Shown piece by piece: positions 2,878 to 55,809 of a stretch of DNA of 64,000 bases; the first letter of the stretch is position 1; each line of letters begins with the position of its first letter. Source of the stretch: Escherichia coli (lineage in GTDB: Bacteria > Pseudomonadota > Gammaproteobacteria > Enterobacterales > Enterobacteriaceae); assembly GCF_024502345.1 (NCBI RefSeq), contig NZ_JALDNN010000001.1. One strand, 5' to 3'. The translations under genes and the position numbers were made by a program. The notes beneath the pieces were generated by a model. That model was given only the letters and a program-made list of their open reading frames with translations. It was not told the origin of the DNA and did not search any database.

Positions 2878-4308
2878 TTAATGAACAAAACGTCCGGCAC
2901 GAGACATAAATTCTTCTTCGCTCATCTCCTGTCCGTTAAAAACAACTTTACCCGGTGTATAACGCAGTTGCAGCGAGGCGGTATTGTTGTCAATCGTGAT
3001 TAACTGAAACATCTGACCTAATGTCATCATCCCGCTGATTTGTTTATCCGCCTGCTTTTGCGCTTTTTCCGCATCCATTCCTTCAGATAAATTAAGCTGT
3101 TTTGCGGTTTCTGTGACGACATTAAGCGGTAACTTCACATCAAAATTGAGCGATTTGATATCTTTGTTTGTGGATGATGAAGATTTGGCTGGGTCGGCAA
3201 TACTGATATCCAGATTGGCATTTAGTTCGCCGAGTGCGTTCTTCCATCTTACCGGTTGTTTAATGGTCGGCTCACTTTTTTGTAATAACGGTAAATACTC
3301 TTTGAACAATGCAGCATTCACTTCTTGCAGAGCAACTTCATCGTTTGCTAACTCAGGGTGTGCAGCAAGCTGCTTCTGCATCGCAATGTTATACTGGATG
3401 ATAAATTGGCGCACTGCTGAGGGATCAATAGATTCAGCAATCAATGACCACTCACCACTACCGAGTTGCTGATTCCCTTTTGTTAACTTATCAAGTTCGT
3501 AGGTCAGATTGACATTGATATAATCTTTGTCTTTAACGCGATCCAGCCTGGTTTTTGCAACGAAAGCATCGATTTGGGCAACGTCTTCCCCGTGATTGAT
3601 AATGTTAATCTGATTAAATTTCGACTCGCTTTCACCAACCGGAAATTTCTTTTCTTCTAATCGCGCCAGAGAATCAATGGTAAAACTTTTTGCCGTTACT
3701 TTGTTCATTGGTGATAATTGCAGAACAATATCTTCGACTTTGCCTTCAATATCCAGGTTAGACAATGAACTACCATCACCATTAAAAGTAAACTGGCCCT
3801 CACCAAAAGAAAACTTTCCATACTCTGCAGGGGCAACATCTAATGTCGTAGAGAATGAGCCACCAAACGCGAATCGCAATGTCGCTTCCACGGGCGATTT
3901 ATTTTTCACGGCGATAAATAGCGGTTGTGTCAGTTCATTATTCACTAAGTTCACTTTTGCCGCTGCCAGTGCTGGGATGACATTACCATGCATTAACATT
4001 GTGATGGGCAACGGACCGTGCTCAACATCCACATCAAATACAACTTTCTGGCCTGGCTTGATATTGAGATCGGGTGCACCGTTATCGAATGTCATTTGCA
4101 TTTGAAAACGAGAATTAAAAAAACCTTTGTCAAAATTTTTATAACTTAACGTCATATCGTAGGCATGTTCACCTTTCTTTTTAGCATCGTTAAAATCTTT
4201 AATAAACTTTTCGACACCAGGCTGAATTTGCGTACCTGTGTACCATGTGCCACCACCCCAGATTACGGCTAACGCAACAATAACACCTGTAGCTGACTTA
4301 CGTATCAT
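2878..4308 (-). CDS. yihF: DUF945-family protein YihF
   Basis: 476-aa ORF with N-terminal signal/TM; position between yihG and dsbA. Confidence 0.8.
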   Translation of the reverse strand: MIRKSATGVIVALAVIWGGGTWYTGTQIQPGVEKFIKDFNDAKKKGEHAYDMTLSYKNFDKGFFNSRFQMQMTFDNGAPDLNIKPGQKVVFDVDVEHGPLPITMLMHGNVIPALAAAKVNLVNNELTQPLFIAVKNKSPVEATLRFAFGGSFSTTLDVAPAEYGKFSFGEGQFTFNGDGSSLSNLDIEGKVEDIVLQLSPMNKVTAKSFTIDSLARLEEKKFPVGESESKFNQINIINHGEDVAQIDAFVAKTRLDRVKDKDYINVNLTYELDKLTKGNQQLGSGEWSLIAESIDPSAVRQFIIQYNIAMQKQLAAHPELANDEVALQEVNAALFKEYLPLLQKSEPTIKQPVRWKNALGELNANLDISIADPAKSSSSTNKDIKSLNFDVKLPLNVVTETAKQLNLSEGMDAEKAQKQADKQISGMMTLGQMFQLITIDNNTASLQLRYTPGKVVFNGQEMSEEEFMSRAGRFVH

Positions 4309-4414
4309 ATAAATATTCCCTGATAAAACAGCAAAACTTTAAATATCCGCTTATGCTGAAATAATGTCCAGCGGCAGGACGCATTATCAGAATGTATTTA
4401 TATTTATTAAATAA

Positions 4415-4443
4415 TAAAAAAAACCCGTGAATATTCACGGGCC
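4415..4443 (-). terminator. rho-independent terminator downstream of dsbA
   Basis: Hairpin cccgtgaatattcacggg followed by a U-run on the minus-strand transcript, just past the dsbA stop. Confidence 0.6.
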
Positions 4444-4462
4444 TTATGTAATTTACATTGAA

Positions 4463-5089
4463 TTATTTTTTCTCGGACAGATATTTCACTGTATCAGCAT
4501 ACTGCTTAACAAAAACATCCATATTGCTGGTATCCATACCCTGCGGATTCAGCTGATATTTACCGTTAACAAACATCGCCGGAACGCCACGCAATTGCAC
4601 GTCAGCTGCAGCTTTTTCCTGCTGAGCGACCAGAGATTTGACCACGAAGCTGTTCCACGCCGCGTCGTACTCTTCACCTTTAATACCTGCGTTGATAAAT
4701 ACATCGCGGATATCAGATGCTGAACGAATGGTCTGGGTTTTCTGTACGCCTTCAAACAGCGGAACAGTGACTTTGTCTTCCACGCCCAGCGCCATCGCCA
4801 CAGCCCATGCCTGAGTCAGATCTTTGCCCAGGTCACCACCCATGAAGTCGACGTGGTATTTAGTCATCTTCACGCCTTCCGGCAGTTTTTTCTTCACATT
4901 ATCAGAAATATGCAGAACTTCTTCAAACTGATAGCAGTGCGGACAGAAGAAAGAGAAAAACTCCAGCACTTGCGGCGCGCCAGCTACCGGTTTTTCCAGG
5001 GTAGTGTACTGTTTACCATCTTCATACTGCGCCGCCGATGCGCTAAACGCTAAAACTAAACCAGCCAGCGCCAGCCAAATCTTTTTCAT
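4463..5089 (-). CDS. dsbA: periplasmic thiol:disulfide oxidoreductase DsbA
   Basis: 208 aa, signal peptide, CPHC active-site motif ([12 protein letters not shown]). Confidence 0.95.
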
Positions 5090-5105
5090 GATCTACTCTC
5101 TCCGA

Positions 5106-6092
5106 TTAATACATAGGTGTTAATTGTAAAGGGGGTTCTTGTAGAACTTTTGCCTGTTCTATAAAAGTCGCCGTTTGTCGCAGCCAGTAATCTTCCCCGG
5201 TTAACCACGGGAAATTTTTCGGGAACGCGGGATCAGCCCAACGCCGCATTAGCCAGGCAAGATAATAAACCAAACGCATGGCGCGTAAAGGTTCAATCAG
5301 TCCGATTTCAGCGGTGTCGAACTCGCTAAATTCTTCATAAGCTTCAATAATAGTTTCCAGTTGCATCCGCTGCTCGGCTTTATCGCCATTGAGCAACATC
5401 CACAAATCCTGAATAGCTGGACCATTACGTGCATCATCCAGATCAACAAACATTGGACCATCGCGCCAGAGAATATTCCCGGCGTGGCAGTCTCCATGTA
5501 GCCGCAGAACGGTGAAATCTTCCCGCCAGTGTGCTGTAACGGCGGCGATCAGCTCATCTGTCGCTTTCAGGAATGCCGCTTTCAACCCGGAAGGTATCAG
5601 TGTAGCGTCCTCAAACAGCTTGCGTGGCTCAATGAGATATTCATTCAGACCGATGGTCGGGCGATGGATAAAAAGCTGTTTGTGCCCCGTCTGGTGCATA
5701 CGCCCTAAATAACGCCCAACCGCTTCCGTCTGATCGATATTATCAGCTTCGAACTGGCGACCACCGACGCTTGGAAAAACAGCGAAATAAAATCCCTGAT
5801 GATTCAATAAAGTCTGACCGTTAAAGGCCACAGGTGCTGCGACCGGAACTTCATCATTTACCAGCTGCAACGCAAATTGATGTTCTTCGAGGATTTGATC
5901 GGCTGTCCAACGTTCAGGGCGATAAAATTTGACGACAAAACGTCGACGCTCTTCGTCCTGAAATTGATAGACACGGTTTTCATAGCTGTTAAGCGGGGTA
6001 AGACCGGAATCCACCCGGATCCCTTGCTCAAACAGAGCGTCCATGATGGTATCCGGGTGTAGTGTCTGGAAAGTAAAAGCGCTGTTGTTCAT
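5106..6092 (-). CDS. srkA: stress-response Ser/Thr kinase SrkA (YihE/RdoA)
   Basis: 328-aa ORF; kinase-like HGDCHAGNILW motif; immediately upstream of dsbA. Confidence 0.9.
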   Translation of the reverse strand: MNNSAFTFQTLHPDTIMDALFEQGIRVDSGLTPLNSYENRVYQFQDEERRRFVVKFYRPERWTADQILEEHQFALQLVNDEVPVAAPVAFNGQTLLNHQGFYFAVFPSVGGRQFEADNIDQTEAVGRYLGRMHQTGHKQLFIHRPTIGLNEYLIEPRKLFEDATLIPSGLKAAFLKATDELIAAVTAHWREDFTVLRLHGDCHAGNILWRDGPMFVDLDDARNGPAIQDLWMLLNGDKAEQRMQLETIIEAYEEFSEFDTAEIGLIEPLRAMRLVYYLAWLMRRWADPAFPKNFPWLTGEDYWLRQTATFIEQAKVLQEPPLQLTPMY

Positions 6093-47946: not shown

Positions 47947-47992
47947 GAATTAACATGGGTAGGCCGTTTAATGAGCCTACCCACTGACTTAT

Positions 47993-48337
47993 TTATCTTT
48001 TTTTGAAAAAAATTAAGATAAGAAAAAGAACAATATTTGTTACAGGAAGTACCCCCAAAACTCCCCAGTACTTACTCCATCCTAGAGACATCGTATATCT
48101 ACCAAGGATTTGACAAAACCCAAAACTTAACCCTATACCTATACTTCTTAAATTTAATGTCGTAGTCAGGCTTAAAATAAATAGAACAAGGATGGTAATA
48201 GCCCACCACAATAACCATGCCTTAACAAAATCAGATTTTTTGCTGTAAGGTTCTTTACCCAAGAACAACTGCCAAAAGTTACCATTCCCCATATAGAATC
48301 CATTCCCCAAGATATTGTTTATAGAATAAAAATACAT
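47993..48337 (-). CDS. hypothetical small inner-membrane protein (possibly the yigG equivalent)
   Basis: 114-aa ORF with two or three hydrophobic segments in an AT-rich stretch; strand and identity not verified. Confidence 0.35.
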   Translation of the reverse strand: MYFYSINNILGNGFYMGNGNFWQLFLGKEPYSKKSDFVKAWLLWWAITILVLFILSLTTTLNLRSIGIGLSFGFCQILGRYTMSLGWSKYWGVLGVLPVTNIVLFLILIFFKKR

Positions 48338-48616
48338 TCCAATTATATTTAATTAAAATATACCCCATCAATAAAAACTTACACACTCTAAATTACTACT
48401 GTATAGTTATCAATGCAAAGACTGCTATATTGCATATATATATGCAAACCTCATAATTCAGGTAATATATATATTCAAAACAATTATATATAAAAAACAA
48501 TGTAAAAAATATTCAAATCATCCATCAGAAATATATTCTACCCATCCAGGCTTGAGCATTTATCACGCTTTCAGTTCATAATCTATACATTAACATCATG
48601 GTCAATATTAATAACT

Positions 48617-48895
48617 TTGAATGATATCAACCTGGCTTTGAGTTTTATTCTGGTTATTAATAATACCTATGTAAATATCAATATTGGAGCAAAAAGAATA
48701 AGAGATACTGGATGTAAGGCAATCTACTTTGTATTGATTTCATTGGGTTTGACACTTTTTTCTATTATCTCTGCAGCAATTGAAGGGGTGAGATGTGAGT
48801 CATTAAGCGTCCAACTCAACGTGGCATGGATATTATTCACAACAATTATGTTATCTGCGATTCCCTCGGCTAAAATGTCGCTGTCAGCACACTAA
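48617..48895 (+). CDS. hypothetical small membrane protein (possibly the yigF equivalent)
   Basis: 92-aa ORF, hydrophobic, AT-rich context. Confidence 0.3.
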   Translation: MNDINLALSFILVINNTYVNINIGAKRIRDTGCKAIYFVLISLGLTLFSIISAAIEGVRCESLSVQLNVAWILFTTIMLSAIPSAKMSLSAH

Positions 48896-48920
48896 CTTAC
48901 TCACAGCGACATCGTATAGT

Positions 48921-49047
48921 TACAGCCAGTTCTTGCGCTTAAAGTACAGATACGGTGCCAGGCCCGCGAGGATCATAAAGATAATCGCGCCTGGGTAGCC
49001 GAAACTCCACTTCAGTTCTGGCATAAACTCAAAGTTCATGCCATAGC
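48921..49047 (-). pseudogene. displaced duplicate of the corA 3' end (last ~40 codons)
   Basis: ~127 bp, ~94% identical to the corA 3' end at 51419-51545; encodes ...[43 protein letters not shown] with no upstream corA body. Confidence 0.8.
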
Positions 49048-49209
49048 TGGAGGCAATCGGCGTAGGAAAAAGTTTCCTAATCGGTAAATTCAATATTTTG
49101 TTATTAACAATGAGCAAGACCAATCATTAACGACGTTCTCTTCAGAGATGTAATGAAAAAATGTGAAGTGTACTTCTTTTTTAAATATTTTTTTACCCTA
49201 GCATTTGTT

Positions 49210-49218
49210 CTCAAATTG
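49210..49218. repeat. IS1 target-site duplication, left copy (CTCAAATTG)
   Basis: Identical 9-mer at 49987-49995. Confidence 0.9.
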
Positions 49219-49233
49219 GGTAATGACTCCAAC

Positions 49234-49737
49234 TTATTGATAGTGTTTTATGTTCAGATAATGCCCGATGACTTTGTCATGCAGCTCCACCGATTTTGAG
49301 AACGACAGCGACTTCCGTCCCAGCCGTGCCAGGTGCTGCCTCAGATTCAGGTTATGCCGCTCAATTCGCTGCGTATATCGCTTGCTGATTACGTGCAGCT
49401 TTCCCTTCAGGCGGGATTCATACAGCGGCCAGCCATCCGTCATCCATATCACCACGTCAAAGGGTGACAGCAGGCTCATAAGACGCCCCAGCGTCGCCAT
49501 AGTGCGTTCACCGAATACGTGCGCAACAACCGTCTTCCGGAGCCTGTCATACGCGTAAAACAGCCAGCGCTGGCGCGATTTAGCCCCGACGTATCCCCAC
49601 TGTTCGTCCATTTCCGCGCAGACGATGACGTCACTGCCCGGCTGTATGCGCGAGGTTACCGACTGCGGCCTGAGTTTTTTAAATGGCGGAAAATCGTGTT
49701 GAGGCCAACGCCCATAATGCGGGCGGTTGCCCGGCAT
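49234..49737 (-). CDS. insB: IS1 transposase InsB reading frame
   Basis: 167 aa, begins [16 protein letters not shown]. Confidence 0.9.
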
Positions 49738-49931
49738 CCAACGCCATTCATGGCCATATCAATGATTTTCTGGTGCGTACCGGGTTGAGAAGCGGTGTAA
49801 GTGAACTGCAGTTGCCATGTTTTACGGCAGTGAGAGCAGAGATAGCGCTGATGTCCGGCGGTGCTTTTGCCGTTACGCACCACCCCGTCAGTAGCTGAAC
49901 AGGAGGGACAGCTGATAGAAACAGAAGCCAC
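49656..49931 (-). CDS. insA: IS1 InsA
   Basis: 91 aa, begins [42 protein letters not shown]. Confidence 0.9.
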
Positions 49932-49986
49932 TGGAGCACCTCAAAAACACCATCATACACTAAATCAGTAAGTTGGCAGCATCACC

Positions 49987-49995
49987 CTCAAATTG
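49987..49995. repeat. IS1 target-site duplication, right copy (CTCAAATTG)
   Basis: Exact match to 49210-49218. Confidence 0.9.
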
Positions 49996-50121
49996 ATATT
50001 GAGCTTAAATATAACCAAGGAAAATGTAAATGAATAACACATTACTTCCATCAATTAATATTCCCTGTACACTTTTCGAAACTATTAGTTTATTTGATGA
50101 TTATTCTGCTGATGATATGCA

Positions 50122-50145
50122 ATATGGTGATATGGTGATATGGTA
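50122..50145. repeat. 8-bp tandem repeat (ATATGGTG x3, last copy imperfect) spanning the start codon of ORF 50140
   Basis: atatggtg atatggtg atatggta; each unit contains an ATG, and only the third is in frame with the long ORF. Confidence 0.8.
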
Positions 50146-50886
50146 GAACAAGATTTTCTCTCACTCGGCCTAAGCGATATCTCAGCAAAAGTTGATCCTT
50201 ACAGACTTATTAAATACCATTTCCCTAGCCCAGGTTCTATTAATGTTGCTTTTAGTGCCTCAAGTTCCGGAACAAAAATATCACAACGTGAATGCACTGA
50301 TATTTTATTTGCAGAAATGAAAGAACTAGCAAAAATGTTTTCCTTTTTTGGACAATATAAAACACTTATCGAAGATCTGATTGAACATTTTAGATATGGA
50401 AATGGCAGCAATTTTCATAGCCAACAATTAAATTTATCTTTTCATGAAAAAATAAATAAATATGGTTATAATAGTCCAATACGAATAATCAAAGAATGTA
50501 TCGAAAATGGCATTAATTCAACTCCCTCGACAGGATACCAACCTCTTATCCTGCAAAGCATTAAAACCAAATTACTTTCATCAAGACTAAATAAATTTAA
50601 TGACTTCGAGGACAGTTTTAATGGCTTAGGAATCAGTGTTCATGATATTTCAGCTCAAAAAATATCTCTTTTAAGTTTTCAAAAATACGCTATAGGATGG
50701 AGTGCAACAATTCATTTTGTAGCACAGGACCACTTCGGTCTTGATGTAACTGATATCAAAAACAAGACTTACAGCAAATATAGATTTTTTCGCATATGGT
50801 TCTTTTTACAACGGCATAAAGACTTTGCTTTCAAACCTTTTTTCACCAATTTTAACACTATCGAAAGAATCGAAAATTATCTATGA
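50140..50886 (+). CDS. hypothetical protein, 248 aa, no signal peptide (candidate effector/toxin of a two-gene module)
   Basis: Long ORF in AT-rich DNA; its stop overlaps the next ORF's start (ATGA at 50883-50886). Confidence 0.5.
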   Translation: MVEQDFLSLGLSDISAKVDPYRLIKYHFPSPGSINVAFSASSSGTKISQRECTDILFAEMKELAKMFSFFGQYKTLIEDLIEHFRYGNGSNFHSQQLNLSFHEKINKYGYNSPIRIIKECIENGINSTPSTGYQPLILQSIKTKLLSSRLNKFNDFEDSFNGLGISVHDISAQKISLLSFQKYAIGWSATIHFVAQDHFGLDVTDIKNKTYSKYRFFRIWFFLQRHKDFAFKPFFTNFNTIERIENYL

Positions 50887-51374
50887 AAAGCAAACTCCAG
50901 AAAATTATATTATGTTTATTTCTTCTATGCTGCATCTATAATTTATGGACATTGCGTCCTGTACAGATTTTGTATACATACTCTGATGCTGGCAATTCAG
51001 TCTTTCTGGTCGTTGATCATCTGCCATGGACTGACAGCGATAAAATAAATTGGTATCTGAAGCATCAGAATGAAATTAAAAATCAACATCCCCTACCAGA
51101 AGGTAGTTGGCATACCTGGTATGTCATTGATATCGGTAATGGCTTCACTGACTATAAAAAATATATCGAAGGGCCGTATGAAGATCTCTACTGTTTCCCG
51201 ACAATTAAGAGCAATGATAATTGCATCGTGAAAAATTACTTAATGGTTATTAATGAATACCCTTATCGTAACACTCATATTGTTATTAACGATTTTACTG
51301 AGTATCAATTAACACAAGAAAATAAAATAGAGCGAGTTTTCAATCCGCATGACTTTAAAAAAGACAATTTTTAG
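50883..51374 (+). CDS. hypothetical exported/membrane-anchored protein, 163 aa (candidate immunity partner)
   Basis: N-terminal MKSKLQKIILCLFLLCCIYNLWTL is a signal or anchor sequence; translationally coupled to the upstream ORF. Confidence 0.5.
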   Translation: MKSKLQKIILCLFLLCCIYNLWTLRPVQILYTYSDAGNSVFLVVDHLPWTDSDKINWYLKHQNEIKNQHPLPEGSWHTWYVIDIGNGFTDYKKYIEGPYEDLYCFPTIKSNDNCIVKNYLMVINEYPYRNTHIVINDFTEYQLTQENKIERVFNPHDFKKDNF

Positions 51375-51415
51375 AAATAAGCCGGATAAAAAAATAGCTT
51401 TATCCGGCACTCATA

Positions 51416-52366
51416 TTACAACCAGTTCTTCCGCTTAAAGTACAGATACGGTGCCAGGCCCGCGAGGATCATAAAGATAATCGCGCCTGGGTAGCCGAAA
51501 CTCCACTTCAACTCTGGCATAAATTCAAAGTTCATCCCGTAGCTGGAAGCCACCAGCGTCGGTGGCAGGAACACCACGGATACCACCGAGAAGATTTTGA
51601 TGATGCGGTTCTGCTCGATGTTGATAAAGCCCATCGCCGCCTGCATCAGGAAGTTCACCTTCTGGAACAGGGATTCGTTATGCGGCAGCAGGGATTCGAT
51701 ATCTCGCAGGATTTCACGCGCCTGCTCCAGTTGCCCACCCGGTAAACGCGCCTTGCGTACCAGGAAGTTGAGCGCACGCTGGGTATCCATCAGACACAGG
51801 CGAACTTTCCAGCCGATATCTTCCAGTTCCGCCAGCGTGGAGAGCGCCTCATCGTACTCATCGCCCTGATGCCCTTCCATAATTACCCGGCTCAACTGCT
51901 CCAGATCGCTGTAGATATTTTCAATTTCATCTGCCAGCTGTTCGATTTTGGTTTCGAACAGATCCAACAGCAGCTCGTAGGCGTTACCGTCCACCATTGA
52001 CTGGCTACGGGCGCGCATACGATACAGACGGAATGCAGGCAGTTCACGCTCACGCAGAGTAAACAGACGACCATCACGGATGGTAAATGCCACAGTGGAG
52101 TTACCGGCGTGATCTTCCGCATCTTCAAAGAAGAAGAAGGAGTGAATATGCAGGCCGTCATCGTCTTCAAAGAAACGTGCCGATGCTTCGATGTCTTCCA
52201 GTTCCGGGCGGGTTGCCAGGCTCTGGCCAAGTTCAGATTGTACGCGCAGTCGCTCGTCGTCGTCCGGTTCGACAAGATCAATCCATACTGCATTTACAAG
52301 GGGTTGTGACTCTTCGACTTCCAGCCGGGTCAGTCGGTTATTTTCCAGTTGAAATGCGCTCAGCAT
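51416..52366 (-). CDS. corA: magnesium/cobalt transport protein CorA
   Basis: ORF 51416..52381; the start is [16 protein letters not shown] at 52366 (316 aa); GMN motif (YGMNF) and two C-terminal TM helices. Confidence 0.95.
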
Positions 52367-52735
52367 GACCGGGACTCCCAATGCTTAAAATATCGGACAG
52401 TTCGGTGGGCACACAGAAACAAATTGGGTTTCAGACCATTAAACAGCCTGACTCAGCGCGACGGGAAAAATTGAGGTCGCTGACAACCGCTAAGGCTATC
52501 AGCAAAAAGGGATAGCCTTAGGAGTTGATCCTGGATGACAGGATAGTGAGGCAGTATCTACTGGGTGTGTCCAAGGCGAATGTCCTCTTAGAGTGATCGT
52601 GCGCGCATGTTACGCCAGCAAAATTTTGCCGTCAACACGCAACAGAACACCACAGAACAATAGTTGAACTTCGCGCTTTTTGGTACTCGTCAAGGTCGCT
52701 AACAGGATAAAAAAATCCAACATCCAGGACCTATA

Positions 52736-53500
52736 ATGGCGCATCGGCTACTCATTGGTAAAGGAATGATCACCTTGAATCTCAAACGGATTTTTCTCAC
52801 CCTCACCTTACTTCCCTTGTTTGCTGTTGCCGCTGATGATTGCGCACTCTCAGATCCGACGCTGACCGTACAGGCGTATACCGTTAATCCTCAAACAGAG
52901 CGGGTGAAAATGTACTGGCAAAAAGCTAATGGCGAAGCGTGGGGAACGTTACATGCTCTGCTGGCGGATATGAATAGTCAGGGTCAGGTGCAGATGGCGA
53001 TGAACGGCGGCATCTATGATGAAAGCTATGCGCCGCTCGGTTTGTACATCGAAAACGGTCAGCAGAAGGTGGCGTTAAATCTCGCTTCAGGTGAAGGGAA
53101 TTTCTTTATCCGTCCTGGCGGCGTGTTTTATGTCGCGGGAGATAAAGTCGGCATCGTTCGTCTGGATGCCTTCAAAACCAGTAAAGAGATTCAGTTTGCG
53201 GTGCAGTCAGGGCCAATGTTGATGGAAAACGGTGTAATTAATCCGCGTATTCATCCCAACGTCGCCTCACGCAAAATTCGTAACGGTGTTGGGATTAATA
53301 AACATGGGAATGCCGTGTTTTTGTTGAGCCAGCAGGCGACAAATTTTTATGATTTTGCCTGTTATGCCAAAGCGAAACTGAACGTTGAGCAGCTGCTTTA
53401 TCTTGATGGCACGATTTCACATATGTATATGAAAGGCGGGGCAATCCCGTGGCAACGCTATCCTTTTGTCACCATGATTTACGTCGAGCGGAAAGGTTAG
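52736..53500 (+). CDS. yigE: DUF2233-family periplasmic protein YigE
   Basis: 254 aa with signal peptide; position between corA and uvrD. Confidence 0.8.
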   Translation: MAHRLLIGKGMITLNLKRIFLTLTLLPLFAVAADDCALSDPTLTVQAYTVNPQTERVKMYWQKANGEAWGTLHALLADMNSQGQVQMAMNGGIYDESYAPLGLYIENGQQKVALNLASGEGNFFIRPGGVFYVAGDKVGIVRLDAFKTSKEIQFAVQSGPMLMENGVINPRIHPNVASRKIRNGVGINKHGNAVFLLSQQATNFYDFACYAKAKLNVEQLLYLDGTISHMYMKGGAIPWQRYPFVTMIYVERKG

Positions 53501-53539
53501 AATGATAGTTTTGTGTCAGATACTAAATATGCTGCTGAT

Positions 53540-53646
<107 letters not shown>

Positions 53647-55809
53647 TTACACCGACTCCAGCCGGGCATAAGCCGCCACCAGCCATTTAATACCCTGGCC
53701 CTGAAATGCCACCTGCAAACGGCTATGCTCACCGCTGCCTTCCATATTGACAATGGTGCCTTCACCAAACTTAGCGTGGCGTACGCGCTGGCCGAGCTTG
53801 TAGCCGCTGTCGTTCTCGACCATCGGCGTACCCATCCGTTGATGGCTGACCGGGCGGCTTACCGTGGCGCGCAGGCGCACCTCTTCCACACACTCTTCCG
53901 GCAGCTCGCCGATAAAGCGCGACGGGCGATGGTAAACCTCTTTGCCATACAGACGGCGAGTTTCCGCGTAGGTCAGCGTCAGTTTCTGCATCGCGCGGGT
54001 TACGCCAACGTAGGCCAGACGGCGTTCTTCTTCCAGACGCCCGCCTTCATCCAGCGACATCTGGCTTGGGAACATGCCCTCTTCCATACCGACGATAAAC
54101 ACCTGCGGGAACTCCAGACCTTTCGCCGAGTGCATGGTCATCAGTTGTACCGCATCCTGCCAGGTATCCGCCTGCCCTTCGCCTGCTTCCAGCGCCGCAT
54201 GGGATAGGAACGCCTGCAGCGGCATTAAATCTTCGTCTTCTTCGTTGTAGCTGAACTGGCGCGTTGCCGTCACCAGTTCCTCTAAGTTTTCGATACGCGT
54301 CTGACCTTTTTCGCCCTTCTCCTGCTCGTACATGGTACGCAGGCCGGAGTCTTTAATTACCCGGTCAGTCTGTACATGCAGCGGCATATCGGCAGTTTCC
54401 TGCGCTAAGGCGTCGATCAGTTCCATAAACCGCTGTAAGGCGCTGGCAGCACGTCCGGCGAGGGCTTTTTCCTGCAACAGTTCACGACATGCCTGCCAGA
54501 GTGTTAACTGGCGATCGCGCGATGTCTGACGTACCACGTCCAGCGTCCGGTCACCAATACCCCGCGTTGGCGTATTCACCACACGCTCAAAGGCCGCGTC
54601 GTCGTTACGGTTGGCAATCAGGCGCAGATACGAGAGCGCATCTTTGATTTCCTGGCGTTCGAAGAAGCGCATCCCGCCGTAAATACGGTACGGCATACTC
54701 GCCTGCAACAGTGCTTCTTCCAGCACACGCGACTGGGCGTTACTGCGGTAGAGAATGGCGCACTCGGCAAGCGCCCCGCCGTTGTCCTGCCAGGTTTTGA
54801 TGCGGTTAACCACAAAACGCGCTTCATCGAGTTCGTTAAAAGCGCAATAGAGGGAAATAGGCTCACCGTCCGCGCCATCGGTCCACAGTTTTTTACCCAG
54901 ACGCCCGTTATTGTTTTCAATCAGGGCGTTAGCGGCGCTCAGAATATTGCTGGTAGAGCGGTAGTTTTGCTCCAGACGAATAGTTTCGGCACCGGGGAAA
55001 TCATTAAGGAAACGCTGAATATTCTCCACCTGCGCCCCGCGCCAGCCGTAGATTGACTGGTCGTCATCACCGACGATCATCACTTTGCCGGTGTCGCCCG
55101 CCAGCAGGCGGATCCACGCGTACTGAATGTTGTTGGTATCCTGGAATTCGTCCACCAGGATATTGGTAAAACGTTCGCGGTAGTGTTGTAGGATATGCGG
55201 CTTGTTAAGCCACAGTTCGTGAGCGCGCAGCAGCAGCTCGGCGAAGTCCACCAGGCCCGCGCGGTCACACGCTTCCTGATACGCCTGATACACCTTCTGC
55301 CAGGTCTGCTCCACCGGATTACCGTAGCTTTGAATATGATGCGGACGCAGGCCTTCATCTTTCTGGCTGTTGATGTACCACATTGCCTGGCGCGGCGGCC
55401 ACTGCTTCTCGTCGAGGTTCATGGCTTTGATCAGACGCTTAAGCAGGCGTAGCTGGTCTTCACTGTCGAGGATCTGGAAATCCTGCGGTAGATTGGCGTC
55501 CATATGGTGCGCACGCAGCAAACGGTGCGCCAGCCCGTGGAAGGTGCCGACCCACATGCCGCCCTGGCTGGTGCCCATCAGTTGCCCGATACGATGACGC
55601 ATCTCCGCCGCCGCTTTGTTGGTAAACGTCACAGCCATAATCGAGTATGGCGAGCAGTTTTCCACGCTCATCAGCCAGGCGATACGATGCACCAGTACGC
55701 GCGTCTTACCACTGCCCGCGCCCGCCAGCACCAGAAGGTTGCTGCGTGGCGCGGCCACCGCTTCGCGCTGTTTGTCATTAAGGCTGTCGAGCAGGTAAGA
55801 AACGTCCAT
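53647..55809 (-). CDS. uvrD: DNA helicase II (UvrD)
   Basis: ORF 53647..55998; the real start is MDVSYLLDSLNDKQREAV at 55809 (720 aa); Walker A GAGSGKT. Confidence 0.95.
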   Translation of the reverse strand: MDVSYLLDSLNDKQREAVAAPRSNLLVLAGAGSGKTRVLVHRIAWLMSVENCSPYSIMAVTFTNKAAAEMRHRIGQLMGTSQGGMWVGTFHGLAHRLLRAHHMDANLPQDFQILDSEDQLRLLKRLIKAMNLDEKQWPPRQAMWYINSQKDEGLRPHHIQSYGNPVEQTWQKVYQAYQEACDRAGLVDFAELLLRAHELWLNKPHILQHYRERFTNILVDEFQDTNNIQYAWIRLLAGDTGKVMIVGDDDQSIYGWRGAQVENIQRFLNDFPGAETIRLEQNYRSTSNILSAANALIENNNGRLGKKLWTDGADGEPISLYCAFNELDEARFVVNRIKTWQDNGGALAECAILYRSNAQSRVLEEALLQASMPYRIYGGMRFFERQEIKDALSYLRLIANRNDDAAFERVVNTPTRGIGDRTLDVVRQTSRDRQLTLWQACRELLQEKALAGRAASALQRFMELIDALAQETADMPLHVQTDRVIKDSGLRTMYEQEKGEKGQTRIENLEELVTATRQFSYNEEDEDLMPLQAFLSHAALEAGEGQADTWQDAVQLMTMHSAKGLEFPQVFIVGMEEGMFPSQMSLDEGGRLEEERRLAYVGVTRAMQKLTLTYAETRRLYGKEVYHRPSRFIGELPEECVEEVRLRATVSRPVSHQRMGTPMVENDSGYKLGQRVRHAKFGEGTIVNMEGSGEHSRLQVAFQGQGIKWLVAAYARLESV

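Follow-up and report, generated by a model that had tools for sequence, protein, structure and literature searches.

In Escherichia coli, two copies of the 3' end of corA bracket a cassette of two genes, which encode a DUF3289-family toxin and a DUF943 immunity protein. We propose that the repeat is probably the scar of an old recombination event that fused two alternative forms of the locus, that no integrase was involved, and that the cassette can now be deleted through the repeat. The resulting order, corA'-cassette-corA, is a common arrangement and not a new mobile element. The locus was examined in a window of 64,000 nucleotides of E. coli DNA (the whole stretch that was analyzed), and its features are collected in Table 1.

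Table 1. Features of the rarD-corA interval, with positions in the window
Feature	Position	Strand	Remarks
AT-rich filler	47947-48919		Between rarD and the orphan tail, in place of K-12 yigG-yigF
Copy A, orphan corA 3' end	48920-49066	-	Last 48 codons and stop; 5' part absent
Joint and cassette upstream region	49067-49218		18-nt AAAAAGTTTCCTAATCGG (49067-49084), then sequence common to cassette genomes without the orphan tail
IS1 (insA/insB)	49219-49986	-	768 bp; 99 to 100% identical to IS1B copies
DUF3289/YPO3983-family toxin, pseudogene	50030-50886	+	Frameshift relative to intact alleles
DUF943 immunity gene, intact	50883-51374	+	163 aa; PF06092 at 1.8e-26 over 1-150 of 151
GC-rich hairpin GCCGGATAAA...TTTATCCGGC	51380-51407	-	Between DUF943 and the corA stop; terminator-like for corA
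Copy B, 3' end of intact corA	51416-51562	-	Whole gene 51416-52366

A repeat search and alignment delimited the two corA tails as a direct repeat of 147 nt with 92% identity and an offset of 2,496 nt. BLAST E-values for the pair, from 1e-50 to 1e-62, rule out chance similarity. The copies differ at 12 positions, 5 of which lie in the final 15 nt, where copy A matches corA at only 11 of 15 positions and is far more diverged than the adjoining sequence. Beyond nt 147 the likeness of the copies is random, and attempts to carry the match of copy A to corA further by hand, whether ungapped or with a gap of one codon or of 7 bp, gave nothing above chance. The initial annotation had described this repeat as about 127 bp with roughly 94% identity and 8 mismatches. 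The repeat is real, but 48921-49047 pairs with 51417-51543 and not with 51419-51545, a register that yields 97 mismatches; correctly aligned, the 127-nt stretch has 7 mismatches and 94.5% identity.

Copy B had been taken for the functional end of corA, and it does belong to an intact gene, whose 316-aa product has exactly the CorA sequence found in other E. coli. Copy A is the orphan tail that had been described, and PGAP annotates it in relatives as a partial CorA pseudogene. It reads TTTAAGCGCAAGAACTGGCTGTAA, as reported. This had been taken for the K-12 form, but MG1655 reads TTTAAGCGGAAGAACTGGTTGTAA, the form of copy B, and the attribution was in error. The likeness of copy A to K-12 is confined to positions deeper in the tail, nt 121 and 124, where A copies have G121/A124, the state of K-12. 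B copies have C121/G124 together with the downstream hairpin, as do cassette genomes without an orphan tail. These sequences support a reading in which copy A is a nonfunctional leftover and copy B belongs with the cassette; the diagnostic sites are few, and the assignment of tails to an A or B type uses very few SNPs within a mosaic, recombining region. Orphan tails of other lineages carry nonsynonymous changes, including Y to D beside the GMN motif, which argues that the tail is drifting. The possibility that it encodes a mini-protein under purifying selection was rejected, as A-to-T, S-to-G, and Y-to-D changes occur in different lineages.

The orphan tail had been placed on the yigF side of the locus, but the window has no yigF, and the filler that takes its place has no nucleotide match to yigG-yigF. 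The filler has a GC content of 32.2% and contains two open reading frames. One (47993-48337, minus strand; called at 99 aa by PGAP) encodes a hypothetical membrane protein with no NCBIfam family. The other (48617-48895, plus strand; 92 aa) shows a weak likeness to YigG, with 29% identity to the YigG C terminus (E of 1e-4), and a weak match to NF008474.

Between the two tails, what had been called an AT-rich islet of about 2.4 kb measures 2,349 bp (49067-51415), but this length includes a GC-rich IS1 with its 9-bp target duplication, so that the AT-rich cassette accounts for only about 1.57 kb (31.6% GC versus 50.7% for the whole window). The only open reading frames are insA/insB of IS1 and the DUF3289 and DUF943 genes; a recombinase is absent. 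The target duplication, CTCAAATTG, occupies 49210-49218 and 49987-49995, and the IS1 stops 43 nt short of the DUF3289 start codon. IS1-free relatives have a single copy of the 9-mer and only two genes in the cassette; the closest genome, HCP4S3_I4, also lacks IS1. A promoter scan upstream of DUF3289 returned fewer matches than shuffled sequence, and we therefore make no claim that IS1 severed a promoter.

DUF3289/YPO3983 is a published family of periplasm-acting type VI secretion system (T6SS) effectors whose toxicity is neutralized by the immunity partner DUF943, a pair designated T6EC1/T6IC1 (PMC11148199). An orphan DUF3289 effector with demonstrated T6SS delivery has been described in Aeromonas jandaei (PMC12135965), and DUF3289/DUF943 clusters have been described in Klebsiella (PMC12469244). 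Intact toxin alleles include WP_001059699.1, and the intact allele of another genome (L004) matches PF11692 at 9.3e-83 over residues 2-270 of 272 and scores 431 bits for TIGR03034, against a cutoff of 156. The toxin was modeled with AF2 (pLDDT of 72), and the top Foldseek match was 9jdi_A, the BtpeA CTD T6SS effector (E of 5e-8, probability 1.0); phmmer with the toxin also finds 9jdi and 9jg8. A similarity of DUF3289 to colicin M has been claimed (PMC11148199), and for our model the colicin M-type protein PaeM (4g76) ranks fourth, as a weak match with an E of 0.69 over 90 aligned columns. PAAR-annotated genes overlie DUF3289 homologs in Klebsiella and Photobacterium records. The window itself contains no T6SS genes; by analogy with its published relatives, the E. 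coli DUF3289 protein would be a substrate for T6SS delivery.

In the window strain, the toxin is dead and the immunity gene is kept. An extra 8-bp ATATGGTG unit in a tandem array (50122-50145) shifts the reading frame and leads to a stop at 50144-50146 (codon 39). The residual open reading frame (50140-50886, 248 aa) lacks the conserved N terminus, with its invariant residues P12...M35. Slippage of the 8-bp unit preceded the insertion of IS1. The ATG of the DUF943 gene overlaps the toxin stop (ATGA, 50883-50886), and its product has an N-terminal hydrophobic anchor and the same length as its relatives. DUF943 has no NCBIfam family, and a PDB sequence search with it returned nothing. Its position directly 3' of DUF3289 recurs in six other genera-level loci. 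The window cassette is thus like orphan DUF3289/DUF943 pairs in its full-length Pfam and TIGRFAM matches, in its toxin-then-immunity order, and in its stop/start overlap. The E. coli cassette shares with them, moreover, the N-terminal anchor of the immunity protein, a toxin without a signal peptide, and a location away from T6SS genes. It differs from those pairs in being fixed at one rarD-corA site across genera and, in the window, in having a pseudogene for a toxin.

A survey of 5,426 complete E. coli genomes indicates how widespread these arrangements are. The cassette adjoins corA in 2,632 of them. The window type, in which filler, orphan tail, cassette, and corA follow one another, occurs in 1,432, and yigG-yigF-corA'-cassette-corA occurs in 299, so that about 1,730 of the 2,632 cassette genomes have an orphan tail. 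A further 931 genomes have the cassette without that tail. K-12 and others have only yigG-yigF-corA and no cassette; comparison with strains free of the islet had been suggested, and such sites with a single corA tail do exist, in K-12 and in 24 cassette-less genomes that have the AT-rich filler. Artifactual assembly from collapsed or duplicated reads can be dismissed outright, because the structure is present in so many independent complete genomes and the two copies differ at 12 positions.

The cassette is also an old neighbor of corA. The order rarD-DUF3289-DUF943-corA recurs in Salmonella diarizonae and, at about 75% nucleotide identity to E. coli, in a third enterobacterial lineage; both lack an orphan tail, and from this shared order the cassette is probably the older resident of the locus. 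In Salmonella diarizonae and in the distant lineage L029, the cassette is accompanied by no yigG remnant, and an orphan tail is likewise missing. A scan of genome contigs that relies on exact peptide words returned only eight loci, two of them on E. coli contigs that had been assigned to metagenome-assembled genomes of Alistipes and Clostridium. A hairpin adjoining corA, defined by a terminator scan of the equivalent L004 sequence, is conserved in all cassette-bearing genomes and in L029, and the hairpin of K-12 at this position differs. Judged from this distribution, the hairpin belongs to the cassette side. A search of the literature on the locus turned up only genome-wide promoter and occupancy studies, none of them relevant.

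How the two arrangements came together is best seen at the joint. In a composite that retains yigG and yigF (L006), the sequence left of the joint runs collinearly with K-12 as far as corA nt 137, and the sequence right of it does so with strain E2348/69, beginning at the base that immediately follows copy A. The joint sequence is identical, save for one variable base, in all eight orphan-tail genomes that were read, which points to one origin. In the tail-less strains E2348/69 and TUM2330, a 5' remnant of yigG lies directly against the same TAAATTC... sequence, at a point 18 nt rightward of where copy A ends. Over these 18 nt, 12 positions match the yigG remnant versus 5 that are corA-like, a difference that is suggestive only. 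Like the last 15 nt of copy A, these 18 nt are far more diverged than the sequence next to them, and the divergence on both sides of the joint can be explained only ad hoc, by an imperfect patch of microhomology or by a lack of gene conversion near the border of homology.

We propose the following account. The gap between rarD and corA is an old polymorphic site, containing either yigG-yigF, as in K-12, or the DUF3289/DUF943 cassette. The window composite reads as a K-12-type left half, whose last 147 nt are a corA tail, joined to a B2-type right half; the orphan tail may have arrived with the yigG-yigF side. One illegitimate joint (49066/49067) links copy A to the cassette upstream region, and the right half brings the cassette, its own terminator hairpin, and the complete corA that ends in copy B. 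The most likely source of this structure is one recombination event in which a yigGF-type chromosome and a cassette-type chromosome were joined, with homology on one side and a nonhomologous joint on the other, and an integrase would be unnecessary. The composite would then have spread vertically and by ordinary homologous exchange, and in the window lineage yigG-yigF would later have been swapped for another AT-rich filler.

The proposed mechanism is homology-facilitated illegitimate recombination, a process described for transformation of Acinetobacter and Streptococcus pneumoniae. The composite is like a product of that process in its one-sided homologous anchor, its single illegitimate joint with patchy microhomology, and the truncated piece of a conserved gene carried at the joint. 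It differs in that the event is deduced from the product only and in the net duplication of 147 bp. The sampled tail-less alleles are not the direct parent, because the two cassette clades differ by 9 to 11%. Also, the tail-less E. coli form keeps a 52-bp yigG 5' remnant and so could be a descendant of the composite, produced by a deletion with one end 18 nt away from the joint, instead of being its parent.

The present-day behavior of the repeat is documented within a single clone. The O157:H7 genome Z1835 has no cassette; it differs from its relative Z1831 by the absence of 1,711 bp, with otherwise identical flanks. The one tail that remains agrees with copy A at nt 6 and 16 and with copy B from nt 121 onward. 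This chimeric tail demonstrates that the cassette is deleted by recombination of one repeat with the other. It is exactly the tail predicted for generic direct-repeat deletion by the RecA pathway, and the cassette deletion is probably RecA dependent. Moreover, the B copies of L004 and E100341 carry the A-type bases G6/G16, and the A and B copies of O157 are identical over nt 17-120, which suggests sequence exchange between the two tails. The tails act today as a 147-bp direct repeat; they probably exchange sequence with each other, and a crossover at them deletes the cassette precisely and leaves a chimeric, intact corA.

The same deletion, run in reverse, underlies the alternative that fares best against one-sided fusion, although we consider it unlikely. 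A circularized fragment, reaching from the cassette upstream region to corA nt 147 and closed by an end joining that became the joint, could have entered the corA tail of a yigGF-type chromosome through a single, RecA-dependent homologous crossover of the Campbell type, and excision and reinsertion could recur. The predicted product is exactly the observed structure, the mosaic tails are compatible with it, and the two models leave the same sequence. Nevertheless, a nonreplicating circle of 1.7 kb would require an intercellular route, no circle or independent gain is documented, and the inner-end differences are common to all A copies, so that one event and vertical spread suffice. An extension of this idea, to which we give still less credence, holds that the locus is an integrase-free, RecA-driven plug-in cassette, whose circle with its corA tail reinserts into any E. 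coli corA.

It is very improbable that the composite was itself ancestral, with the cassette inserted downstream of yigF by a mechanism left unspecified and with a target duplication of 147 bp. The K-12 type would then have arisen by repeat-mediated deletion, and the B2 type by deletion of yigG'-yigF-corA'. The yigG 5' remnant retained by the B2 type and the demonstrated loss through the repeat are in keeping with this scheme. However, the K-12 tail is the opposite of the predicted chimera, with B-type bases near the stop and A-type bases deeper in the gene; the cassettes of Salmonella diarizonae and L029 have neither remnant nor orphan tail; and the duplication itself would still need an explanation.

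Least plausible among the biological alternatives is the one favored by the initial annotation, in which a small element with an attachment site in the 3' end of corA integrated site specifically, supplied a replacement tail, and later lost its integrase. The direct repeat of a gene end around AT-rich DNA, the existence of single-tail sites, and the association of the functional tail with the cassette are all features that it would predict. A precedent is icd, in which prophage e14 and phage 21 leave a duplicated, slightly different 3' end; both carry an integrase and excise site specifically. The corA locus is like icd in having a replacement 3' end beside the inserted DNA and an orphan tail on the other side. 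In contrast to e14 and phage 21, it holds a two-gene cassette only, is syntenic in other genera, and has no recombinase. The absence of an integrase, which the initial annotation had noted for the interval, extends to about 15 inspected genomes in four configurations, and the one documented loss of the cassette matches what homologous recombination at the repeats would produce. Occurrence of the islet on plasmids, in phages, or at other integration sites had been raised as a check, but across the 5,426 genomes the cassette was found only beside corA, at a median of one place per genome. Phages gave no match, and there was no true plasmid copy: the full-length matches were to E. coli records of 1.0 and 4.8 Mb, taken as chromosome derived, and the other plasmid match was a fragment of 98 bp joined to a corA that had been captured. 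Furthermore, the repeat is missing from 931 cassette-bearing genomes, and where it is present no defined identical core is visible; similarity decays toward the joint and SNPs are mosaic between strains. An integrated element with a lost vehicle is thus not upheld.

Several implications follow. The presence of AT-rich DNA beside a duplicated gene end is not by itself the sign of an integrating element; in this case the duplication would represent fused old alleles. An origin by fusion also offers an explanation for the partial CorA pseudogene that is annotated in roughly a third of E. coli genomes, and a published T6SS effector/immunity family is placed at a fixed chromosomal site across genera. 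If, on the other hand, the cassette does reinsert as a plug-in circle, it would be gained as well as lost, its loss would be penalized by toxin-firing neighbors, and the repeat would be a maintained mobility handle and not a passive scar. The O157:H7 genome pair documents a clean, repeat-driven deletion of a toxin-immunity cassette within one clone. Moreover, because toxin alleles of E. coli are only about 84% identical between clades, versus 99.7 to 100% for the flanking proteins, the locus offers a convenient natural system for studying weapon turnover and the retention of orphan immunity.

The direct repeat of the corA 3' end spans 147 nt in the window, with 92% identity at an offset of 2496 nt; 5 of its 12 mismatches fall within the final 15 nt, and past nt 147 the similarity between the copies is random. 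BLAST E-values near 1e-57 rule out a chance origin. The initial annotation had recognized about 127 nt of this repeat, which is real and longer, but it placed copy B 2 nt out of register and counted 8 mismatches, where the 127-nt stretch has 7 when copy B is set at 51417-51543. Its reading of copy B as the functional end of corA and of copy A as an orphan tail holds. In other lineages, the orphan tail has acquired non-synonymous changes, including a Y-to-D change adjoining the GMN motif, indicating that its coding sequence is not conserved. An assembly error, once considered as a source of the repeat, is ruled out, because about 1730 independent complete genomes share the structure and PGAP labels copy A as a partial CorA pseudogene.

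Features of the corA 3'-end repeat and of the interval that it brackets (window positions)
Feature	Position	Strand	Description
Copy A	48920-49066		Orphan corA fragment (corA'); last 48 codons plus stop
Upstream region of cassette	49067-49218		AT-rich
IS1	49219-49986		768 bp; perfect 9-bp target duplication CTCAAATTG
DUF3289/YPO3983 gene	50030-50886		Frameshifted in the window
DUF943 gene	50883-51374		PF06092 match 2e-26; intact; ATG overlaps stop of upstream gene
Hairpin	51380-51407		GC-rich; terminator-like, on the corA side
Copy B	51416-51562		End of intact corA
corA	51416-52366	minus	Intact, 316 aa

Between the copies lies a toxin/immunity cassette of about 1.57 kb and 31.6% GC, not counting IS1. 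An intact DUF3289 allele matches PF11692 (9e-83) and TIGR03034 (431 bits; cutoff, 156). In the window, the toxin gene is inactivated: the array at 50122-50145 has gained a ATATGGTG unit (three units versus two), which shifts the frame and leads to a stop at codon 39, and the residual 248-aa open reading frame (ORF) lacks the family-invariant N-terminal residues. The closest genome, HCP4S3_I4, has the same frameshift without IS1, and so the frameshift predates the insertion.

The rarD-corA gap was typed among 5426 complete E. coli genomes. K-12 has rarD-yigG-yigF-corA (type a). Type (b), found in 931 genomes (e.g., E2348/69), has a 52-bp 5' remnant of yigG, followed by the cassette and corA, without an orphan tail. 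Type (d) reads rarD-yigG-yigF-corA'-cassette-corA (n = 299), and type (c), that of the window, has the same order with an unrelated AT-rich filler, X, instead of yigG-yigF (n = 1432). The cassette was found in 2632 genomes, while types (b) to (d) sum to 2662. Empty sites, which the initial annotation expected, do exist, in K-12 and in 24 genomes of type (c0), rarD-X-corA. A search for the islet elsewhere placed the cassette solely beside corA in the 5426 genomes, and none was found in phages or true plasmids.

Filler X (47947-48919; 32% GC) has a minus-strand gene for a hypothetical hydrophobic protein, for which no family match was obtained, as well as a 92-aa ORF with 29% identity to the YigG C-terminus. 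The filler extends exactly from the stop of rarD to that of the orphan corA tail, as though homologous recombination through these flanks had put it there. Other strains have independent IS1 insertions at different positions of this AT-rich interval: in AR_0128 (L001, 3016-3713), IS1 separates the orphan tail from the hypothetical gene of X, and in EC18 (H108), it lies in or near the DUF3289 gene. Many E. coli genomes (L002, L003, L008, L020, L022, and L023) also carry an extra gene, annotated as a SAM hydrolase/SAM-dependent halogenase family member, between yigE (or ysgD) and uvrD; the window spacer (53500-53647) lacks it, so that gene presence varies at a second site, about 2 kb away from the corA polymorphism. 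Contigs L011 and L012, from "uncultured Alistipes" and "uncultured Clostridium" metagenome-assembled genomes, are near-identical to the window-type locus (98 to 100% at the protein level), probably through binning contamination.

In all eight orphan-tail genomes read, the joint GCGTAGG-AAAAAGTTTCCTAATCGG-TAAATTC is identical except for one variable base, which argues for a single origin. From rarD through nt 137 of corA', a type (d) genome is collinear with K-12, and beginning with the base immediately after corA', it is collinear with E2348/69; in type (b), TAAATTC directly adjoins the yigG remnant. At diagnostic sites, A copies and K-12 share G121/A124, while B copies and type (b) share C121/G124 and the cassette-side hairpin, so each tail had been assigned to the correct side. 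At the stop-proximal sites, K-12 agrees with copy B, so the K-12 form given in the initial annotation was wrong. The joint borders are unusually diverged, with 11/15 and 12/18 matches on the two sides. From these comparisons, we infer that the simplest reading is a fusion of a type (a) left half, ending 147 nt into corA, to a type (b) right half. Such a fusion would need one illegitimate joint plus ordinary homology on the other side, and no integrase. The repeat observation is confirmed and its interpretation partly right, but wrong as regards an integrating element and a foreign origin of the cassette. Either parent could have been the recipient: a yigGF chromosome may have gained the cassette, or a cassette chromosome may have gained yigGF together with a corA stub. 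E. coli type (b) may even have arisen from the composite form by deletion.

Deletion of the cassette through the repeat is shown directly, as is the loss of a working toxin gene. The cassette is missing from the O157:H7 strain Z1835, which differs from its relative Z1831 by the lack of 1711 bp, the flanks being otherwise identical. In its sole corA tail, nt 6 and 16 are of the copy-A type and the bases from nt 121 onward are of the copy-B type, exactly as a crossover within the 104-nt stretch of identity between O157 copies A and B would produce. Sequence exchange between copies is suggested by these identical central parts and by A-type G6/G16 in copy B of both L004 and E100341.

A segment of E. 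coli chromosome is present on IncHI1 plasmids of Salmonella and E. coli (R27, pHCM1, and about 50 others); it comprises the final 98 bp of DUF943, corA, ysgD, and the beginning of yigE, with 97.6 to 99% identity to window 51318-53016 (L010 [R27], 3223-5699; L009, 2998-5477). IS1 directly adjoins the segment; in one E. coli chromosome (PS2Canimalfeces12), this segment has IS1 at its opposite end. The arrangement suggests that IS1 captured corA from an E. coli strain with the cassette.

The cassette belongs to a known effector/immunity family. When present in the periplasm of E. coli, a DUF3289 protein is toxic and rounds the cells, and the adjacent DUF943 protein neutralizes it; a colicin-M-like fold has been proposed for this toxin (PMC11148199). 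In Aeromonas jandaei, an orphan DUF3289 protein was shown to be a true T6SS effector (PMC12135965), and Klebsiella T6SS loci also pair DUF3289 with DUF943 (PMC12469244). An AlphaFold model of the toxin (pLDDT 72) matches the CTD of the Bacteroides fragilis T6SS effector BtpeA (9jdi; E 5e-8; PaeM, only E 0.69), and in records from Klebsiella and Photobacterium, PAAR-annotated genes overlie homologues of DUF3289. We infer T6SS delivery for the E. coli protein. In Huaxiibacter/Trabulsiella (L014, 5001-6918; L016, 5001-9427), the DUF3289/DUF943 genes form tandem arrays away from corA, with multiple copies of the toxin, of toxin fragments, and of the immunity gene, as is typical of effector/immunity arrays.

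The cassette had been taken for foreign, yet Salmonella enterica subsp. diarizonae has the order rarD-DUF3289-DUF943-corA, and a metagenomic enterobacterial contig with about 75% nucleotide identity to E. coli reads recQ-pldA-yigI-rarD-cassette-corA...uvrD. Both conserve the form of the corA-adjoining hairpin, and neither locus has the orphan tail or the yigG remnant. Relative to E. coli, their toxins are 54 to 62% and their immunity proteins 60% identical, versus 85 to 98% for flanking proteins. Within E. coli, two cassette clades differ by 9 to 11% in nucleotides, with toxin identity at just 84% and RarD and CorA at 99.7 to 100%, which does not fit a foreign islet of recent arrival with a lost vehicle. 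Built of known parts, the arrangement is common and had already been annotated; the cassette is probably the older resident of the rarD-corA site, and the divergence of its clades fits long-lived, fast-evolving toxin alleles.
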